Below, piece by piece: positions 7,446 to 14,172 of a DNA stretch of 39,620 bases. The stretch comes from Deinococcales bacterium (lineage in GTDB: Bacteria > Deinococcota > Deinococci > Deinococcales > JAAFIG01): the NCBI GenBank assembly GCA_043778225.1, contig JAYWGM010000019.1:1-39620 (forward strand), read 5' to 3'. The notes beneath the pieces were generated by a model that saw only the letters and a list, made by a program, of their open reading frames with translations, was not told the origin of the DNA and made no database searches. How positions within the stretch are numbered: position 1 is the stretch's first letter; the number at the start of each line of letters is the position of its first letter. Made by a program: the position numbers and the translations under genes.

Positions 7446-9038
7446 TTAGAACTCGCCGCGTGCGAAGCTCGAGATGATGTTTGGTGCGCTGGTATCAAAG
7501 CCGCAAATGTCAAGCATTCCAGCGTCTTTTGGATCGGCAATGCTAAATTGCGTGGCGGTCATGCCCACCACCACCAGCCGTGCTGCAATGCCCATGGAAT
7601 CACGGTATCGGCGCAAGGCTTCAAAGGGGTGTACCTTACCAAAGTACGTTTCGTTATCGGTGTAAATCACGAATACATCGGCTTGTACGCCTTTCTCGAG
7701 CGCCCAGAGCATTGGTAAAGCACAATCTGTACCACCGAATGATTGGTTTTGAGTCTTCTTGAGTGCAGTCTCGAGAGAATCGCCTGCGCGGATTCCCACG
7801 TCGCGGAAAGTATCCGCAAAGCCCATGATGTGCGAATTCTTTTCGCTGCGAAGGGTGAGCATTGCCATGGCGGTGCTGGCAAGGTTTGGGGTGAGACCGT
7901 TTACGCCAGCGATGTTGCCCCATGTCATTGAACCTGAAATATCCAAGCCCAATACAAAGCGCTTGTTGGCAGGTGTAATCGTACCAAACGAAGTATAGAA
8001 CGCCTTCTCGAGCGCATCCACAATTTGTGATACGACTACCCAAGTACCATCGCCTTTGATGCTGCGTCCGCCTTTGTACACCAGCATGGCTTTTAGAGCA
8101 TCAATTGGATGGATTCGTCCTTTTCGCAAACTTTCGGCATCGGTGACTCGAGCAACAATTTGTCCAATCACATCCCATGCACCCGGCACAAGTACCTCGT
8201 GCTTGCCAAGATTGCCAAGGTTACGCAGTGTCCAAGTCAAACCGTTGTTCTCGAGTGCAGTGCGGTAGACTTTTTCACCTCGAGCTTCAGTGGGAATGGC
8301 TTCAATAGGCAACTTGTATTCGTGCATGATGGCGGCAGCACTCTTATCGGTTTTTGCCTCGAGCGCCAGGATATGACCACGCACCATGTTCAGCGCGGCA
8401 TCCTCAGACTCGAGAACACCATCCACAAGGTACTTGAACAACGCATTTCGGGTCGCGTCGCTGGTCTTTGGGTGCGAGAGGCGCAAAGCATCGGCTTGAG
8501 TCCAACCATCTCGAGACTTGTACTTGACAGCCCAGAGTGCCAGTTTCTCGAGTGGCATATGCTCGTAGATTTTTGCCACGCCGCTACGGGTCAGACGACC
8601 CCAACCGCCGAACAATTGTACAAACTCGAGGAAGTGCAACATATGCGTACCAGTTCGCGCCACTTCAGGCAGGGCATCCCAAGCTGCTTTACGAGTCGCA
8701 GAATCCACCGAGAGCTTCGCCACGGCTGCAAGTGCCACAAGAGTAGGCTCTGGCTTTGGAGCGCGGTTGTAACGTGCTACATCAAGAATAATCTCGAGGG
8801 CAGTAGCACCTTCAAGGGTCGCAAAATCGCGCACGAAATCGGTCTCGAGCTTGGTTTGACGCGCTTCGGTGGTGTAAAATGTACCACCCTCAGTTCCTAA
8901 AATTAAAAATCGGAGGAAACGAGTTGCATCCGAAACCGCGAAGACAAAACCGAGGGTGTTGTTTTGCACTTGGTCGGCTCGAGCCTTGAGAATTTGCGAG
9001 GTGCTATTTGGACGAATTGCATTGATAAGGTGCTTCAT
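7446..9038 (-). CDS. rsr: Ro60/Rsr RNA-binding protein (TROVE + vWA domains)
   Basis: Start MKHLINAI with SD GGAGGG; QVQNNTLGFVF, RFLILGTEGGTFY, KYKSRDGWTQADALRLSHP, DISGSM MIDAS motif, GGTDCALPM, YTDNET, GMLDICGFD. Confidence 0.95.
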   Translation of the reverse strand: MKHLINAIRPNSTSQILKARADQVQNNTLGFVFAVSDATRFLRFLILGTEGGTFYTTEARQTKLETDFVRDFATLEGATALEIILDVARYNRAPKPEPTLVALAAVAKLSVDSATRKAAWDALPEVARTGTHMLHFLEFVQLFGGWGRLTRSGVAKIYEHMPLEKLALWAVKYKSRDGWTQADALRLSHPKTSDATRNALFKYLVDGVLESEDAALNMVRGHILALEAKTDKSAAAIMHEYKLPIEAIPTEARGEKVYRTALENNGLTWTLRNLGNLGKHEVLVPGAWDVIGQIVARVTDAESLRKGRIHPIDALKAMLVYKGGRSIKGDGTWVVVSQIVDALEKAFYTSFGTITPANKRFVLGLDISGSMTWGNIAGVNGLTPNLASTAMAMLTLRSEKNSHIMGFADTFRDVGIRAGDSLETALKKTQNQSFGGTDCALPMLWALEKGVQADVFVIYTDNETYFGKVHPFEALRRYRDSMGIAARLVVVGMTATQFSIADPKDAGMLDICGFDTSAPNIISSFARGEF

Positions 9039-9102
9039 GATAGACCCTCCTGTAGGGTAAATTCGCAACTCGAGGCGCTGCTCGAGAAACAAGTAAAAAA
9101 AG

Positions 9103-9184
9103 GGGCATGGCTTGAAATCAAACCAATACAACGGCTCAAGCACGAAGAGGAAACACATGGTGCTTGTGTAAGAATTCCACGCCC
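9103..9184 (-). ncRNA. Y-RNA-like structured RNA without tRNA arms, followed by a U7 tract
   Basis: Terminal stem GGGCGTGG/CCATGCCC, internal stem CAAGCAC/GTGCTTG, contains the GAGCCG motif shared with the other Y-like RNAs; directly upstream of rsr. Confidence 0.45.
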
Positions 9185-9211: not shown

Positions 9212-9340
9212 TGGTGGAGCGAGTGGGATTTGCACCCACGTCCTGACGATTAGAAGTCGATAACCCTCACGCTTCGGCTCTATAAAGAACAAGGTGTGCA
9301 AAAGGATGTTTTATCCGCTCTACTCCTGAGCTACCGCCCC
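9212..9340 (-). ncRNA. Y RNA (YrlA-related), tRNA-framed or circularly permuted form with CCA end
   Basis: Acceptor GGGGCGG/TCGCTCC-A-CCA, D arm GCTC/GAGC, T arm GTGGG-TGCAAAT-CCCAC; 54-nt insert with Ro helix CTTGTTCT-ttat-AGAGC(C)GAAG. Confidence 0.8.
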
Positions 9341-9352
9341 ACGAAAAAATGT

Positions 9353-9476
9353 TGGAACAGGAGGGAATCGAACCCCCGACCTCCCCTGAGTAGAGGTAAT
9401 CCTCGAGCGACGGCTCAGAAAAAAGCAAAAAATGCTGAGGAATTTTTTTGGCGCTCTACCACTGAGCTACTGTTCC
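9353..9476 (-). ncRNA. Y RNA (YrlA-related), tRNA-framed form, second copy
   Basis: Acceptor GGAACAG/CTGTTCC-A, D arm GCTC-AGTGGTA-GAGC, T arm GGGGG-TTCGATT-CCCTC; insert carries TTGCTT...GAGCCGTCGCTCGAGGATTACC. Confidence 0.75.
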
Positions 9477-9936: not shown

Positions 9937-10019
9937 AGGAATCGGAGGGATTTGAACCCTCGAGACATCAGTCTTCCTTCTTAGCAGGAAGGTGCAATAA
10001 GCCACTCTGCCACGATTCC
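9937..10019 (-). tRNA. tRNA-Ser(GCT)
   Basis: GGAATCG/CGATTCC acceptor, CCTTC-CTGCTAA-GAAGG, long variable arm, TTCAAAT loop; no encoded CCA. Confidence 0.9.
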
Positions 10020-10045
10020 ATAAGGCTCGAGAAAACCTCGAGCTT

Positions 10046-10123
10046 TGGCGTGCCTGACAGGATTTGAACCTGCAACGATACGTGTTGGAGACGTACTCCC
10101 TTAGCCAGTCGGGATTCAGACAC
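10046..10123 (-). tRNA. tRNA-Trp(CCA)
   Basis: GTGTCTG/CAGGCAC-G-CCA, TACGT-CTCCAAC-ACGTA. Confidence 0.88.
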
Positions 10124-10127
10124 AAAA

Positions 10128-10210
10128 AGGAAAGCAAGGGAATCGAACCCTTGAGGCTTTTACGCCCAGCCGTTTTCAAAACGGTGTCCTCGACCCACCG
10201 GACGCTTTCC
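10128..10210 (-). tRNA. tRNA-Ser(TGA), atypical D region
   Basis: GGAAAGC/GCTTTCC, CCGT-TTTGAAA-ACGG, long variable arm, AAGGG-TTCGATT-CCCTT. Confidence 0.8.
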
Positions 10211-10215
10211 ATAAA

Positions 10216-10285
10216 AGACCTCGCTCGGAATTGAACCGAGACTCCTTGGTTTGCAGCCAAAGCCCATGCCGTCTGGCTCGAGATC
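10216..10285 (-). tRNA. tRNA-Cys(GCA)
   Basis: GATCTCG/CGAGGTC with U73, TTTGG-CTGCAAA-CCAAG. Confidence 0.85.
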
Positions 10286-10300
10286 AAAATTTGATATATT

Positions 10301-11191
10301 TTAGAATGGAGGAAGTCCATCAATTCTATCCAGTTCCATTCCTGAAAAACTTTCAAATATAAACCATGCGTCATTTTTGGCAATCAATCGAAATTTAAAT
10401 TGATTGCCAGAGTATCCGCTTTGGGTTCTTATATCTTGAATTATAGAAGAAAAGTTATCATATGCTTCTTGTTGTAAACCACCTAAAAATCGCCCATAAT
10501 GGTCATGTATTTGAAGAGCCTTCATGCTATTTCCTGCTGTGGCATAACCACCACCTGGAGGCATCAAAACTGTCCCATCAGAAAGTTCAACAAATATTGT
10601 CATACCCGCTTTTCGTGCTTGTGTAAAGTGACGTGGCTCTATAAGTTTTGGGAAAACATTTTCAAAAGGTGTTTTAAACCGATCAAAAAGCTCAGACCAA
10701 TTAGAGTAGGCAATCTCGAGCAAATCTCTTTCTCCCCACACGGTTGGATGACTTCTGCCATGTGAACGAACGTCAATGCAATAAATCGTATCTTGGTCAA
10801 CCATACAAAATAAAATTTCTTGCGTTCCTGATTCCGTAAAGTGTAAATGATGTATACCCCAATCAAACAGTATTGGGTCATACTTTTCAGTATCCATAAT
10901 TGAACGACTTTGGTGTGACATTAAATTTTCGCCACGCCCAGATTTTTCTTGCAGTAATTGCAAGTCATTTTGATGTTGGCTTGGACAGGTAAATTCTTTA
11001 GCGTAGACAAACCTACGCGGGGCAATTGGAATTTTTCGTATCTCAGCGTTAAAATACTGGAGTGCTATTTTTTGAGGATCAGTGGCAGCAGAAATACTAT
11101 ATCCTTGGGCTACTAATAACATACCCAAATAAGCTGCCCAATCTTCGTAGAAACTGATTTCCAAGTCAATGCCGTCTATGGTTGTTTTCAT
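10301..11191 (-). CDS. Hypothetical 296-aa protein, AT-rich, possible RelE/YafQ-like ribonuclease core
   Basis: Long ORF inside the tRNA array; DWGIHHLHF...EILFCMVDQDTIYCIDVRSH; function is inference only. Confidence 0.7.
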   Translation of the reverse strand: MKTTIDGIDLEISFYEDWAAYLGMLLVAQGYSISAATDPQKIALQYFNAEIRKIPIAPRRFVYAKEFTCPSQHQNDLQLLQEKSGRGENLMSHQSRSIMDTEKYDPILFDWGIHHLHFTESGTQEILFCMVDQDTIYCIDVRSHGRSHPTVWGERDLLEIAYSNWSELFDRFKTPFENVFPKLIEPRHFTQARKAGMTIFVELSDGTVLMPPGGGYATAGNSMKALQIHDHYGRFLGGLQQEAYDNFSSIIQDIRTQSGYSGNQFKFRLIAKNDAWFIFESFSGMELDRIDGLPPF

Positions 11192-11268
11192 TCCAAATCA
11201 TTTTACTTTATGGTTTTAATTTTTGTACATGACAACTTTAGAATGTAAGAAATTTTTAGGTTGATATA

Positions 11269-11479
11269 TGGAGGAGGCGGGACTCGAACCCGCATATTCG
11301 GCACTGTCGGTTTTAGGAAACCCGCTTCCTGCGGCAAGTTACAAACCCACTCAAGATTCGTCATCTCGAGTCGCCAGCCAGTGCATCCGGAACCTCCGAC
11401 GGTTTTTGACCTGTGCCGCAGCTATTACGCTTACCGAATCCGTAGTTTTGCGGTGCGCGACCGTTTGCGCTACTCCCCC
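11269..11479 (-). ncRNA. 211-nt tRNA-framed structured RNA with a large pseudoknotted insert in the variable-arm position
   Basis: Acceptor GGGGGAG/CTCCTCC-A, D arm GCGC/GCGC, T arm GCGGG-TTCGAGT-CCCGC; nested stems ATTCGGTA/TGCCGAAT and CTGCGGCA/TGCCGCAG. Confidence 0.75.
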
Positions 11480-11482
11480 ATG

Positions 11483-11560
11483 TGGTGTTCCTTCAGGGAC
11501 TCGAACCCAGACTTGTCAGTGTTTTAAGCACTGCGCCTCTACCAATTGGGCTAAAGAAAC
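11483..11560 (-). tRNA. tRNA-Leu(TAA), short variable arm
   Basis: GTTTCTT/AAGGAAC-A-CCA, CAGTG-CTTAAAA-CACTG. Confidence 0.85.
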
Positions 11561-11561
11561 A

Positions 11562-11637
11562 TGGTGCGAATTACGAGAGTCGAACTCGTGTTTCCTGCAT
11601 GGCAAGCAGATGTCGTAAACCACTGGACGAAATTCGC
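11562..11637 (-). tRNA. tRNA-Gly(GCC)
   Basis: GCGAATT/AATTCGC-A-CCA, TCTGC-TTGCCAT-GCAGG. Confidence 0.9.
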
Positions 11638-11639
11638 AT

Positions 11640-11715
11640 TGGTGCGTCTGGTAGGAGTCGAACCTACAGATTCTCGGGTTTGAACCGAGCGAGTTTGCCA
11701 TTCCTCTACAAACGC
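11640..11715 (-). tRNA. tRNA-Leu(CAA), short variable arm
   Basis: GCGTTTG/CAGACGC-A-CCA, CTCGG-TTCAAAC-CCGAG. Confidence 0.88.
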
Positions 11716-11745
11716 ATGATTCTCGAGGAAATTCCCGAGAATTTT

Positions 11746-11821
11746 TGGTACGCCGAGCGGGACTCGAACCCGCAAGCTCCTCGTTCTAAGCGAGGTGAGT
11801 TTACCATTTCTCTATCAGCGC
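11746..11821 (-). tRNA. tRNA-Leu(TAG), short variable arm
   Basis: GCGCTGA/TCGGCGT-A-CCA, CCTCG-CTTAGAA-CGAGG. Confidence 0.9.
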
Positions 11822-11846
11822 ATAGACCCTCGAGACTCGAGGGTTA

Positions 11847-11924
11847 TGGTTTCCAAGGTCAGGATTTGAACCCGTAAATTCTTGTCGCTCAAACAAGTGA
11901 CTTTACCAATTTGTCTACACGGAT
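11847..11924 (-). tRNA. tRNA-Leu(GAG), degenerate (mismatched acceptor and T stems; possible pseudogene)
   Basis: CTTGT-TTGAGCG-ACAAG anticodon arm, TTCAAAT loop, ACCA end; acceptor ATCCGTG/CTTGGAA has 2 mismatches. Confidence 0.65.
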
Positions 11925-11926
11925 AA

Positions 11927-11986
11927 GCTGGTGCAGGTTTCCCATGCGGGTGCTGGTGCAGGTTTCCCATGCGGGTGCTGGTGCAG
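11927..11986. repeat. 25-nt tandem repeat (2.4 copies) duplicating the 3' end (CTGCACCA) of tRNA-Gly(TCC)
   Basis: gctggtgcaggtttcccatgcgggt at 11927 and 11952, partial at 11977. Confidence 0.9.
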
Positions 11987-12054
11987 TTGGCGGGAATCGA
12001 ACCCGCATTCTCTGTTTGGAAGACAGCCATCCTAAGCCGTTGGATGACAACTGC
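11979..12054 (-). tRNA. tRNA-Gly(TCC)
   Basis: GCAGTTG/CAACTGC-A-CCA, CTGT-CTTCCAA-ACAG. Confidence 0.9.
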
Positions 12055-12060
12055 ATAAAG

Positions 12061-12132
12061 CCCTTATTCATGTGGCACAACATAAAGCGGTGTGTGCCAT
12101 TTGCTCCCGCTCGAGCAAATGCAAAATAAGGG
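12061..12132 (-). ncRNA. Putative three-way-junction structured RNA in an array spacer
   Basis: Closing stem CCCTTATT/AATAAGGG enclosing ATTTGCTC/GAGCAAAT and TGGCACA/TGTGCCA. Confidence 0.4.
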
Positions 12133-12157
12133 TGGTGACCCCACGTTGTGCGGGGTT

Positions 12158-12232
12158 TGGAGCAGAAGGACAGGTTTCGCACCTGCGTCTCACCTCGGTT
12201 GAGGTGCATCTTGCTGTTTAGAAGACTTCTGC
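12158..12232 (-). tRNA. Aberrant tRNA-like gene with no canonical anticodon loop
   Basis: Perfect acceptor GCAGAAG/CTTCTGC-T-CCA, T arm GCAGG-TGCGAAA-CCTGT, anticodon arm CACCTC-AACC-GAGGTG. Confidence 0.6.
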
Positions 12233-12233
12233 A

Positions 12234-12309
12234 TGGTGGGTTCTCTCGAATTTGAATCGAGACCTCGACGATTAAAAGTCGTCTGCTCTGCCAGTTGAGC
12301 TAAAAACCC
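12234..12309 (-). tRNA. tRNA-Lys(TTT)
   Basis: GGGTTTT/AGAACCC-A-CCA, GACGA-CTTTTAA-TCGTC. Confidence 0.92.
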
Positions 12310-12334
12310 ATGTGGGGCTGATTAAACCCCATTT

Positions 12335-12410
12335 TGGTGATCTCGAGGAGAATTGAACTCCTGTCTGTCGGGTGAAAACCGCCTATCCTAAACCATTAGA
12401 CGACGAGACC
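12335..12410 (-). tRNA. tRNA-Glu(TTC)
   Basis: GGTCTCG/CGAGATC-A-CCA, CGG-TTTTCAC-CCG. Confidence 0.85.
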
Positions 12411-12413
12411 ATG

Positions 12414-12488
12414 TGGAAGGAAAGTTGGGATTTGAACCCAAAATAACAGCTTCAAAGGCTGTTGAGTTGCCAGTTACTCCACTTTCCT
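12414..12488 (-). tRNA. tRNA-Gln(TTG)
   Basis: AGGAAAG/CTTTCCT-T-CCA, ACAGC-CTTTGAA-GCTGT. Confidence 0.88.
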
Positions 12489-12495
12489 ATTTTGG

Positions 12496-12611
12496 ACTCG
12501 AGCAAGGTTTGTAGCACAGTAAAAAACGACTCGAGAATACCTCGAGTTTACAGGATTTGAACCTGTTCTCCTTTGGGGATTTACCGATAACTGTGTTACT
12601 TCGGCTCGAGC
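12496..12611 (-). ncRNA. Y RNA, YrlA-like topology (Ro stem ends, T arm, loop-closed acceptor-like stem, no D arm)
   Basis: 5' GCTCGAGC(C)GAAG pairs with 3' CTTGCTCGAGT; internal CAGG-TTCAAAT-CCTG and ACTCGAG-GTATT-CTCGAGT. Confidence 0.75.
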
Positions 12612-12617
12612 AAAAAC

Positions 12618-12693
12618 TGGTCGAGAGACTTGGAATTGAACCAAGACTTACTGTGCTTCAGACAATCGTGCAGACCAACTACACCATCTCTCG
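12618..12693 (-). tRNA. tRNA-Phe(GAA)
   Basis: CGAGAGA/TCTCTCG-A-CCA, ATTGT-CTGAAGC-ACAGT. Confidence 0.88.
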
Positions 12694-12696
12694 TTT

Positions 12697-12769
12697 TGGG
12701 TGCGGTGATGGGAGTTGAACCCATCAATCGAGCTTATGAGACTCGAGGCATCACCGGACGCACACCGCA
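12697..12769 (-). tRNA. tRNA with CAT anticodon (Met; subtype not determinable)
   Basis: TGCGGTG/CACCGCA-C-CCA, CGAGT-CTCATAA-GCTCG, reduced D arm. Confidence 0.8.
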
Positions 12770-12776
12770 TTAAAAC

Positions 12777-12850
12777 TGGTCGAAGATGATGGAATCGAAC
12801 CATCGTTGCCTGCATATCAGACAGGTGTCTTACCTTTAGACGAATCTTCG
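12777..12850 (-). tRNA. tRNA-Ile(GAT)
   Basis: CGAAGAT/ATCTTCG-A-CCA, CCTGT-CTGATAT-GCAGG. Confidence 0.9.
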
Positions 12851-12905
12851 TTTCTCCTCGAGTTGTTTGGAGGTAATTCTCGAGGGGTGCGTTTATAAAA
12901 CGCTC

Positions 12906-12981
12906 TGGTCGGCACGGCAAGGGTCGAACTTGCGGCTTCTGCTTTGTAAGAGCAGCACTCATACCACTGAGTTACGCGCCG
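12906..12981 (-). tRNA. tRNA-Val(TAC)
   Basis: CGGCGCG/CGTGCCG-A-CCA, CTGCT-CTTACAA-AGCAG. Confidence 0.9.
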
Positions 12982-13019
12982 TTAAACTCGAGGCGGTCAA
13001 GCGCCGTACTCTCGAGCAT

Positions 13020-13094
13020 TGGTGGAAATGATCGGATTTGAACCGATAACCTTCGCTGTGCAAAAGCGCTGCTCTCCCGTTGAGCTACAATCCC
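13020..13094 (-). tRNA. tRNA-Ala(TGC)
   Basis: GGGATTG/CATTTCC-A-CCA with G3:U70, CGCT-TTTGCAC-AGCG. Confidence 0.88.
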
Positions 13095-13117
13095 ATGTTG
13101 GGAACGGGTGTTCCCTT

Positions 13118-13194
13118 TGGTCGAGCGTGTAAGAATTGAACTTACCTAATGTCCTGTTTCCAAAACAGGAGACCCTCCTTGAGTCTGACGCTCG
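13118..13194 (-). tRNA. tRNA-Pro(TGG)
   Basis: CGAGCGT/ACGCTCG-A-CCA, CCTGT-TTTGGAA-ACAGG. Confidence 0.85.
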
Positions 13195-13199
13195 AGATA

Positions 13200-13273
13200 A
13201 GATTCGGATAGGAATTGAACCTATGACCTTTGGCTTCGCATACCAATGCTCGTTTCCACTGAGCTACCGAATC
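13200..13273 (-). tRNA. tRNA-Arg(GCG)
   Basis: GATTCGG/CCGAATC, TTGGT-ATGCGAA-GCCAA, no encoded CCA. Confidence 0.8.
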
Positions 13274-13287
13274 AAGTGATAGTGCTG

Positions 13288-13364
13288 TGGTGAACCGAGC
13301 AGGACTTGAACCTGCGACTTCCATGTTAGAAGCATGGCACTCTACTCCACTGAGTTATCGGTTC
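13288..13364 (-). tRNA. tRNA-Arg(TCT)
   Basis: GAACCGA/TCGGTTC-A-CCA, CCATG-CTTCTAA-CATGG. Confidence 0.92.
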
Positions 13365-13392
13365 GTGAAACCCATGTATTCACTGGTTCATG

Positions 13393-13468
13393 TGGTGAAT
13401 CGGGCAGGACTCGAACCTGCAACTTCCACGTTCGAAGCGTGGCACTCTGTCCTTTGAGTTACCGATTC
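13393..13468 (-). tRNA. tRNA-Arg(TCG)
   Basis: GAATCGG/CCGATTC-A-CCA, CCACG-CTTCGAA-CGTGG. Confidence 0.92.
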
Positions 13469-13474
13469 ATGATG

Positions 13475-13535
13475 CTCGAGCAAGTGAGTACAGCACGACA
13501 ATATTTTCAAGATAATCGTGTTGCTTCGGCTCGAG
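13475..13535 (-). ncRNA. Minimal Y RNA (Ro-binding hairpin only, ~61 nt)
   Basis: CTCGAGC(C)GAAG...CACGATTATC...GTCGTG...CACTTGCTCGAG. Confidence 0.75.
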
Positions 13536-13541
13536 ATGGGT

Positions 13542-13612
13542 ACTGCAAACAAGTGGATTCTTGAGGCGTTTTAATCTGGGAAAGAGATAAGCCTCGAGAT
13601 TCGGCTCGCAGT
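13542..13612 (-). ncRNA. Minimal Y RNA (Ro-binding hairpin only, ~71 nt)
   Basis: ACTGCGAGC(C)GAA-TCTCGAGGC-TTATC...GCCTCAAGA...CACTTGTTTGCAGT. Confidence 0.75.
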
Positions 13613-13616
13613 TATA

Positions 13617-13691
13617 TGGCGGTTCTAACGGGAATCGAACCCGTATTGCCTGAGAGACAGTCAAGCATCGTAGCCGTTGGAACATAGAACC
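13617..13691 (-). tRNA. tRNA-Asp(GTC)
   Basis: GGTTCTA/TAGAACC-G-CCA, CTTGA-CTGTCTC-TCAGG. Confidence 0.88.
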
Positions 13692-13717
13692 ATTTCATGG
13701 TGTCAAACACAGACCTA

Positions 13718-13792
13718 TGGCTGACTCGGTAGGGATCGAACCTACGACATCCTGATTAACAGTCAGGCGCTCTACCTCTAAGCTACAAGTCA
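13718..13792 (-). tRNA. tRNA-Asn(GTT)
   Basis: TGACTTG/CGAGTCA-G-CCA, CCTGA-CTGTTAA-TCAGG. Confidence 0.92.
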
Positions 13793-13796
13793 AAAC

Positions 13797-13880
13797 TGGT
13801 GGATAGAGAGGGATTTGAACCCCCAGTGTTTTTCAACGTCTGATCTACAGTCAGGTGCAATACCATTATGCGATCTACCC
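13797..13880 (-). tRNA. tRNA-Tyr(GTA)
   Basis: GGGTAGA/TCTATCC-A-CCA, CTGA-CTGTAGA-TCAG, long variable arm. Confidence 0.9.
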
Positions 13881-14096
13881 TTAATTTGCTCGAGAGTTGT
13901 ACGCCCCTGAGCGTGTTCGCCTCAAGAATAATCGTGATGCGCCGCACAGCACATAAATTCACGTTTTCTTGAAGAAGAAAAATTTGGCATTCGAGTTGTC
14001 AAAGTATACGCTCGAGAACGAGTTCTAGTCGTCGCAAGCAGTTTGGGTGCATTTTTAGCTTCTCGAGGACACGAATTCTCGAGTTGCGTACACCTG

Positions 14097-14172
14097 TGGG
14101 TTCATCGTCGGGAATCGCACCCGAGTTTCTAGGGTCACAACCTAGCGTCTTGTCTACTGGACGACAACGAAC
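14097..14172 (-). tRNA. tRNA-His(GTG)
   Basis: G-1:C73, TTCGTTG/CGATGAA, CTAGG-TTGTGAC-CCTAG, CCA. Confidence 0.9.

Follow-up and report, generated by a model that had tools for sequence, protein, structure and literature searches.

The window (the whole stretch of DNA analysed here, 39,620 nt of an uncultured Deinococcales genome) carries rsr, a gene for a Ro60 orthologue, and upstream of it on the same strand three short RNA-like units and a long array of tRNA genes. The features of the locus are as follows.

7446..9038, minus strand: rsr, Ro60 orthologue of 530 aa (vWA_Ro60 E 2.9e-65; TROVE E 7e-19)
9100..9184, minus strand: unit D, a third unit of reduced length, lying between unit B and rsr
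9212..9340, minus strand: unit B, a tRNA-ordered Y RNA candidate of 129 nt
9350..9476, minus strand: unit A, another unit in tRNA order (scored by Rfam as a tRNA, 50.4 bits, with an insert of 65 nt)
9937..14171, minus strand: array of 26 tRNA genes upstream of the units, CCA encoded in most

The start of rsr lies 173 nt downstream of unit B on the same strand. Unit A has a degenerate Ro motif, GAGCCGUCG (GCCGUCG, not GNCGAA), ends in ACA instead of CCA and scores 109 bits with the covariance model R1 described below. Unit D has a terminal stem of 8 bp (GGGCGUGG/CCAUGCCC), GAGCCGUUG as its internal motif and a weak T arm followed by a U run, and its counterparts in relatives are 108–137 nt long. 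The flanking genes are chromosomal in kind (SDR, DUF4331, TPR, SufE-like and PEGA). We considered a phage origin of the locus and rejected it, as blastn against phage records gave one weak rsr match and the neighbouring genes are of the chromosomal kind. A search of sequencing runs for the window sequence returned DNA metagenomes only and no RNA run.

Several further observations concern the surroundings of the units. Because more matches of ordinary tRNA length (75–77 nt) lie on many other contigs of the genome, the 26-tRNA array looks accessory; in three genera of the window's family, too, the units are preceded by tRNA arrays. Two small ORFs without a Pfam match (9968-9702 and 9705-9484) lie upstream of the units. 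Two loci of the same genus, L002 (about 820-1310) and L004 (about 1030-1500), hold a two-ORF cassette between tRNA-Ser(gct) and the units, and the ORFs of the window differ from those of this cassette. The hexamer CTCGAG, a highly iterated palindrome of the genome, occurs 256 times in the whole window against 5.8 occurrences expected from shuffles and is also frequent in loci of the same family.

Unit B has the module order acceptor, D arm, Ro arm, anticodon-like hairpin, T arm, A73 and CCA, and its parts are located as follows.

9340-9334 paired with 9222-9216, minus strand: acceptor stem, GGGGCGG/UCGCUCC, 7/7 pairs, G3:U70 and G7:U66 among them
9331-9317, minus strand: D arm
9260..9313, minus strand: Ro arm, a 54-nt insert between tRNA positions 28 and 29, with basal stem AUCCU/AGGGU
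9293-9286, minus strand: 5' strand of the Ro helix, CUUGUUCU, followed by the 4-nt closing loop UUAU
9281-9272, minus strand: 3' strand of the Ro helix, AGAGCCGAAG, that is AGAGC(C)GAAG, with the bulged C at 9276
9278-9272, minus strand: GCCGAAG motif
9247..9259, minus strand: anticodon-like hairpin, CGA-CUUCUAA-UCG
9239-9223, minus strand: T arm
9215, minus strand: A73
9214-9212, minus strand: encoded CCA

Residues 9315-9314 (GA) pair with 9246-9245 (UC), and with them the 5-bp anticodon stem is complete. An earlier, sequence-only reading of this DNA had described a tRNA body with a YrlA-type Ro helix inserted in its anticodon stem, and all of these elements were recovered in place on the minus strand. 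It had also held that deletion of 54 nt leaves a tRNA-Arg(tct)-like 75-mer with CCA; when the 54 nt were deleted by script, ARAGORN indeed called the remaining 75 nt as tRNA-Arg(tct). The GCCGAAG of unit B is an exact instance of the YrlA motif GNCGAAN0-1G. The T loop (UGCAAAU, within 9223-9239) is without the U of psi55, and the same loop is present in G007. Folding of unit B as a single sequence did not reproduce the cloverleaf: the nearest-neighbour minimum free energy was -40.6 kcal/mol, with a z-score of only -1.67, for a fold that is not a cloverleaf, and the proposed structure, when enforced, reached only -27.5 kcal/mol.

At gathering thresholds and at E≤10, Rfam gave no family for unit B, and we rejected matches to the Rfam entries Plastid-ycf2, psbI-rps4 and CRISPR-DR66 as chance. 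On the intact 9212-9340 the Rfam tRNA model RF00005 (gathering threshold 29 bits) returned no match even at E≤10, and ARAGORN, run with the intron option off, made no call on the intact 129 nt. As YrlA RNAs are described by Chen 2014, unit B has GNCGAAN0-1G in the Ro-binding strand, tRNA-like D and T arms and a position within 4 kb of rsr, but it does not have the permuted YrlA topology (Chen 2014; Wang 2018). With RNAs a, b and d of D. radiodurans it has in common a terminal stem of 5' and 3' ends by the T arm, an internal GNCGAA hairpin and a location upstream of rsr.

By DNA search the unit was traced to further genomes of the window's family, where the synteny is kept (tRNA-Ser(gct), units, rsr), and many Deinococcaceae gave full-length matches. 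Unit B is 91% and 83% identical to its counterparts in two genomes of the same genus; this conservation, together with the R1 score given below, sets it apart from a chance arrangement. Units were collected by a script that takes a D-arm word and then, within 330 nt, a T arm and a 3' strand that pairs 7/7 with the 7 nt preceding the D arm. The 82 D-arm word matches resolved into 40 long units, 14 ordinary tRNAs and 28 words without a partner; the last are for the most part coding-sequence stretches that fit this loose word by chance, and they include the D arms of the canonical YrlAs of L009 and L024 and of a probable one in L046. In the alignment of the 40 tRNA-ordered units (A1), no variation is seen in the D-arm word, in parts of the T arm, at U49 and G51 within CUUG, or in the CCG of the Ro motif (40/40 units). 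From the alignment alone, RNAalifold predicted 24 pairs, 15 of them with compensatory changes, and recovered the acceptor, the D stem, the T stem, the inner Ro helix and the basal CCU/GGG stem. With a fuller structure of 33 pairs, 95.6% of cells pair, compared to 85.3% in shuffles and 40–53.5% with slid partners, and double changes are found at 18 pairs; the observed values were reached in 0/500 shuffles, and because the units are kin (effective sequence number 1.9) such counts are not probabilities.

The acceptor and T stems are 100% paired by the selection rule of the script. Two parts of the structure were not selected for. The anticodon-stem base pairs (columns 28:240 and 29:239), counted where both letters are present (31 and 27 of the 40 units), are 100% paired as GC, CG, UA or AU; the Ro helix is 93.9% paired, with an invariant G:C beside the bulge and CG, UG and UA exchanges above it. 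The loop closing the Ro helix has 8 nt or fewer in 26/40 units, and CCA is encoded after the discriminator base in 24/40 units, including 18/18 of the B type. The anticodon-like hairpin is kept as a structure, with CGA/UCG and CCA/UGG as covarying versions of its stem and with U33 in 25/25 of the seven-nt loops.

The covariance model R1, built from the family with unit B included, gives unit B 118.7 bits, compared to at most 57 bits for ordinary tRNAs of the same genome. At a threshold of E≤1e-11, R1 located units in 6/19 genomes of the window's family and in 50/125 Deinococcaceae genomes (84 matches of 118–196 nt, one to three per genome). No unit was found by R1 in the 128 genomes of the family that holds the canonical L009 form. 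An rsr homologue lies downstream in 27/30 related loci examined.

The family also includes structural variants. Orthologues of unit B in L006 (1501-1727), L007 (1501-1729) and L008 (1399-1569) carry large insertions, the kinds observed being ~103 nt inside the Ro-closing loop and a ~35-nt hairpin between tRNA position 28 and the Ro arm. In L027 (1282-1413) and L034 (1626-1749), the Ro arm lies inside the D loop, and all that is left of the anticodon arm is a tetraloop hairpin. Viral contigs were scanned with a pattern and R1 was then applied to 80 loci among the matches listed; at least one full tRNA-ordered unit was found, in L136, and the other matches listed are ordinary tRNAs or weak. Upstream of an rsr-like ORF, positions 300-740 of L136 (an IMG/VR contig) hold a Y RNA with its ends in the Ro helix, a tRNA-ordered unit with CCA (R1 107.5 bits) and two further Y-like RNAs, and both topologies thus occur in one array.

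The relation of unit B to canonical YrlA can be read from L009 and L024, loci of a sister family in which a canonical YrlA lies between ordinary tRNAs (Rfam 37 bits for L009). From 5' to 3', these YrlAs have a Ro strand with GCCGAAG, a GUUAU-CGACUUCUAAUCG element that is also found in the unit of the window, the T arm, an acceptor whose two strands are joined by a short loop, then the D arm and finally a CUUGCCC strand. Positions 63–115 of unit B, in its 3' half, match L009 1501-1553, the 5' part of the YrlA, at 44/53 positions, and the 5' half of unit B aligns to L009 1578-1629, the 3' part of the YrlA. Because the order of the modules is swapped between the two, these alignments indicate that unit B is circularly permuted relative to canonical YrlA, as the sequence-only reading had proposed. 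Unit B resembles YrlA (RF02553) in its GNCGAA(N)G motif, in the conserved sequences of the D and T arms, in being adjacent to rsr and in a GGUUAU element with an anticodon-like hairpin after it, which can be seen in the published probe for M. smegmatis YrlA as well. In YrlA, however, according to the available text of Chen 2014 and Wang 2018, the molecule begins and ends in the Ro stem, the T arm precedes the D arm and the acceptor is closed, whereas unit B begins and ends in an acceptor that carries CCA, has its D arm ahead of its T arm and closes its Ro helix with a loop. We conclude that unit B is a topological variant of the known YrlA class and that this variant is widespread in Deinococcaceae.

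Elsewhere in the genome of the window (G000:C72:54927-55194, corresponding to about 1500-1770 of L058), two tandem tRNA-like elements have a closed acceptor and a T arm that precedes the D arm, which is the canonical YrlA topology. They score 23.1 and 18.8 bits in Rfam, below the cut-off, and the ORFs listed for the 3-kb L058 locus include none of Rsr size.

In a genome with an exact match to the published Yrn1 probe, the order upstream of rsr is Yrn2, tRNA-Asp, Yrn1, a tRNA-like element that has no Ro motif, one unit, tRNA-Tyr, and two further units. Yrn1 and Yrn2 share with unit B the type of locus and the same Ro helix (GGGCCGAAG paired with CCUUGCCC), but both ends of each lie in this helix and Yrn2 is without a tRNA body. 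The terminal-stem ends of the three units match RNAs d, a and b as drawn in Supplementary Fig. S3 of Chen 2014 (PMC4201824), where, in the part available, RNA a is given as 5'-GUCCU..., ...CGA-3', RNA b as 5'-GGGGAC..., ...CACCC-3' and RNA d as 5'-GGUGGG..., ...CCC-3'. The accessible text of that paper places RNAs a, b and d upstream of rsr, describes them as UV-induced and associated with Rsr, to which they bind 'less strongly', excludes them from its definition of Y RNAs, and states that two of the three have T arms while RNA a is without the U of psi55 (PMC4201824). In the same text they are drawn as Mfold structures, and neither a tRNA cloverleaf with a Ro arm nor a YrlA permutation is presented (Chen 2014). 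Because RNAs a, b and d match the three units, the class has an experimental precedent for ends in an acceptor-like stem; unlike unit B, however, these RNAs have no canonical D arm or are class-II-like, and R1 gives no match in that genome at E≤1e-11.

Other known systems offer partial likenesses. The portion of Chen 2014 at hand (PMC4201824) defines the YrlA motif GNCGAAN0-1G and compares it with the vertebrate GGUCCGA, and CGAA-motif hairpin RNAs bind the Ro60 of a Thermus phage in EMSA according to the available part of PMC12135203. The YrlA of M. smegmatis, which has a 7-bp acceptor, is reported in the text available to us to be cut by RNase P and to gain CCA; once processed, it resembles unit B in its free 7-bp acceptor with CCA and in a Ro site on the anticodon side, but it is then made of two fragments that arise post-transcriptionally, whereas unit B is encoded as a single chain. 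The copy in the window has in common with the tRNA-like domain of tmRNA the G3:U70 pair, A73, CCA and a T arm, but unit B has no mRNA module, and the family as a whole does not conserve G3:U70. The name b7a-tRNA reportedly goes back to Burroughs and Aravind in 2016. It denotes a tRNA-like ncRNA sometimes found beside rsr, and we liken it to unit B by description only, on the basis of the accessible text of Wang 2018 (bioRxiv 10.1101/312249).

We also considered that the canonical order might be realised across units A and B. An ordinary YrlA would then begin with the GAGCCG strand and T arm of unit A, continue through an acceptor-like stem made of the 3' strand of A and the 5' strand of B and closed by the 13-nt spacer, and end with the D arm and CUUG strand of unit B. 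The best match of the Rfam YrlA model RF02553 is in line with such a path, as it is a partial one (model positions 27-81) that spans the A/B junction (9381-9317), and so is the 7/7 pairing (three G:U) between unit A's 3' acceptor strand and the 5' strand of B. Yet this match has 25 bits, far below the 69-bit gathering cut-off and equal to the 24.7 bits of a junction between genuine tRNAs in the same array (13334-13428), and dimeric-tRNA matches of this kind were discarded as false positives by Chen 2014, in the text available (PMC4201824). The orthologue of unit B in G006 begins 4 nt after a genuine tRNA-Ser, with no unit upstream, and those in L022, L028 and L033 are solitary, which argues against a YrlA read across two units. 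Moreover, in a count by a script with a narrow Ro-motif pattern, from which the window's own units were left out, the 3' strand of one unit paired 7/7 with the next unit's 5' strand in only 2/23 cases, both of them the canonical YrlAs of L009 and L024. Given also the GCCGUCG of unit A and the short loops that close most Ro helices of the family, we regard this explanation as very unlikely. Even less credible, to the point of near-certain rejection, is a decoding tRNA-Arg(UCU) gene in which an intron or expansion segment is either taken out or tolerated. The ARAGORN call after the 54-nt deletion and the encoded CCA speak for such a gene, and the sequence-only reading had entertained an excised 75-nt form; however, the insert holds the invariant and most conserved motif of the family, which tells against its removal, and a tRNA-Arg(tct) is already present in the array at 13288-13364. 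In addition, the insert lies inside a stem with both junctions at the same helix end, which is not a bulge-helix-bulge site, and with 54 nt it is too short for a group I intron. The anticodon is not kept among orthologues: the triplet that had been read as Arg UCU differs among orthologues with the same acceptor and takes 11 values among the 25 seven-nt loops, which argues that the RNA is not a decoder.

Unit B could also be a decaying, non-functional copy of the family in this genome, as might be suspected from its T loop without U55, its weak thermodynamic support and the degenerate or shortened state of units A and D. Comparison with the same-genus G006 argues otherwise, because the differences it reveals are compensatory, both in the T stem (GUGGG/CCCAC to GUGAG/CUCAC) and in the pairs 27-28:42-43 (GA/UC to GG/CC); with the Ro motif and CCA intact as well, we consider decay unlikely. 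A last proposal extends our preferred explanation rather than opposing it, namely that the RNA is charged with alanine by AlaRS via G3:U70, A73 and CCA and is tmRNA-like or engages EF-Tu. Recognition of G3:U70 acceptor helices by AlaRS is established, the unit of the window has G1:C72, G2:C71, G3:U70, G4:C69, A73 and CCA, and its 3' end gives a partial match to the Rfam tmRNA model RF00023. This match, however, is confined to the 3' end and has 20 bits, below the 47-bit cut-off, ARAGORN finds no tmRNA, and unit B has neither a tag reading frame nor a pseudoknot module. The sequence-only reading had pointed to G3:U70 and A73 as AlaRS identity elements, but G3:U70 occurs in only 12/40 units overall and in 11/18 of the B type, where it alternates freely with G:C (six units, and A:U in one). 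Position 3:70 behaves like any helix position and, because G3:U70 is not conserved, alanine identity is not a family feature. Of the anticodon-like loop and G3:U70, only the hairpin and U33 are conserved. We consider alanylation unlikely, if slightly less so than decay.

The explanation that we favour and consider probable is that unit B is a Y RNA of the YrlA lineage in native tRNA order, with tRNA-like processing and with Rsr on the Ro arm. According to this explanation, unit B would be expressed in this organism by co-transcription with the neighbouring tRNA array, the other units and rsr, cut by RNase P at G1 and trimmed at its 3' end to the encoded CCA; excision in the manner of a tRNA would leave free ends in a normal 7-bp acceptor stem. 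The predicted Rsr site, consisting of GCCGAAG with its bulged C and of conserved G:C and G:U pairs, would be presented on an arm that branches from the anticodon stem, and Rsr would bind to this bulged-C arm, a prediction to which the motif, the synteny and RNAs a, b and d of D. radiodurans lend indirect support. The compact tRNA body may act as a scaffold that resists nucleases and offer a handle to a tRNA-binding effector, for which PNPase provides a precedent. The further suggestion of the sequence-only reading that the RNA tethers Rsr to EF-Tu or ribosomes, or acts as a nuclease decoy, is speculation, while its link between the unit and the origin of Y RNAs is plausible.

To our knowledge, bacterial Y RNAs have been described as circularly permuted tRNA mimics without a free CCA end, and in the portion of the literature covered by our search a tRNA-ordered Y RNA topology was not found in print. 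The units described here add a sister form, widespread in Deinococcales, with native tRNA order, an open 7-bp acceptor, a usually encoded CCA and a side arm that bears the Ro site. This places the long-unclassified D. radiodurans RNAs a, b and d in one family with YrlA, and annotation gains a model for RNAs that are missed by both Rfam and ARAGORN. The units also supply a concrete intermediate for the model in which Y RNAs arose from tandem tRNAs, and natural pairs of G3:U70 and G3:C70 orthologues make the question of Y RNA aminoacylation directly testable. More tentatively, and as a possibility to which we give some weight without thinking it likely, the tRNA-ordered units may be substrates of the tRNA pathway, those with G3:U70 being alanylated, and perhaps also the ancestral state of YrlA. 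If so, the units would be cut by RNase P and end in CCA, G3:U70 versions such as that of the window would be charged with alanine, and Rsr and its nuclease partner would be coupled to EF-Tu, to the ribosome or, by way of a decoy, to tRNA-targeting nucleases. Tandem units would then already contain the YrlA register, from the Ro strand of one unit to that of the next, and a shift of processing sites, not a fusion of two ordinary tRNAs, would have made the canonical permuted Y RNA.
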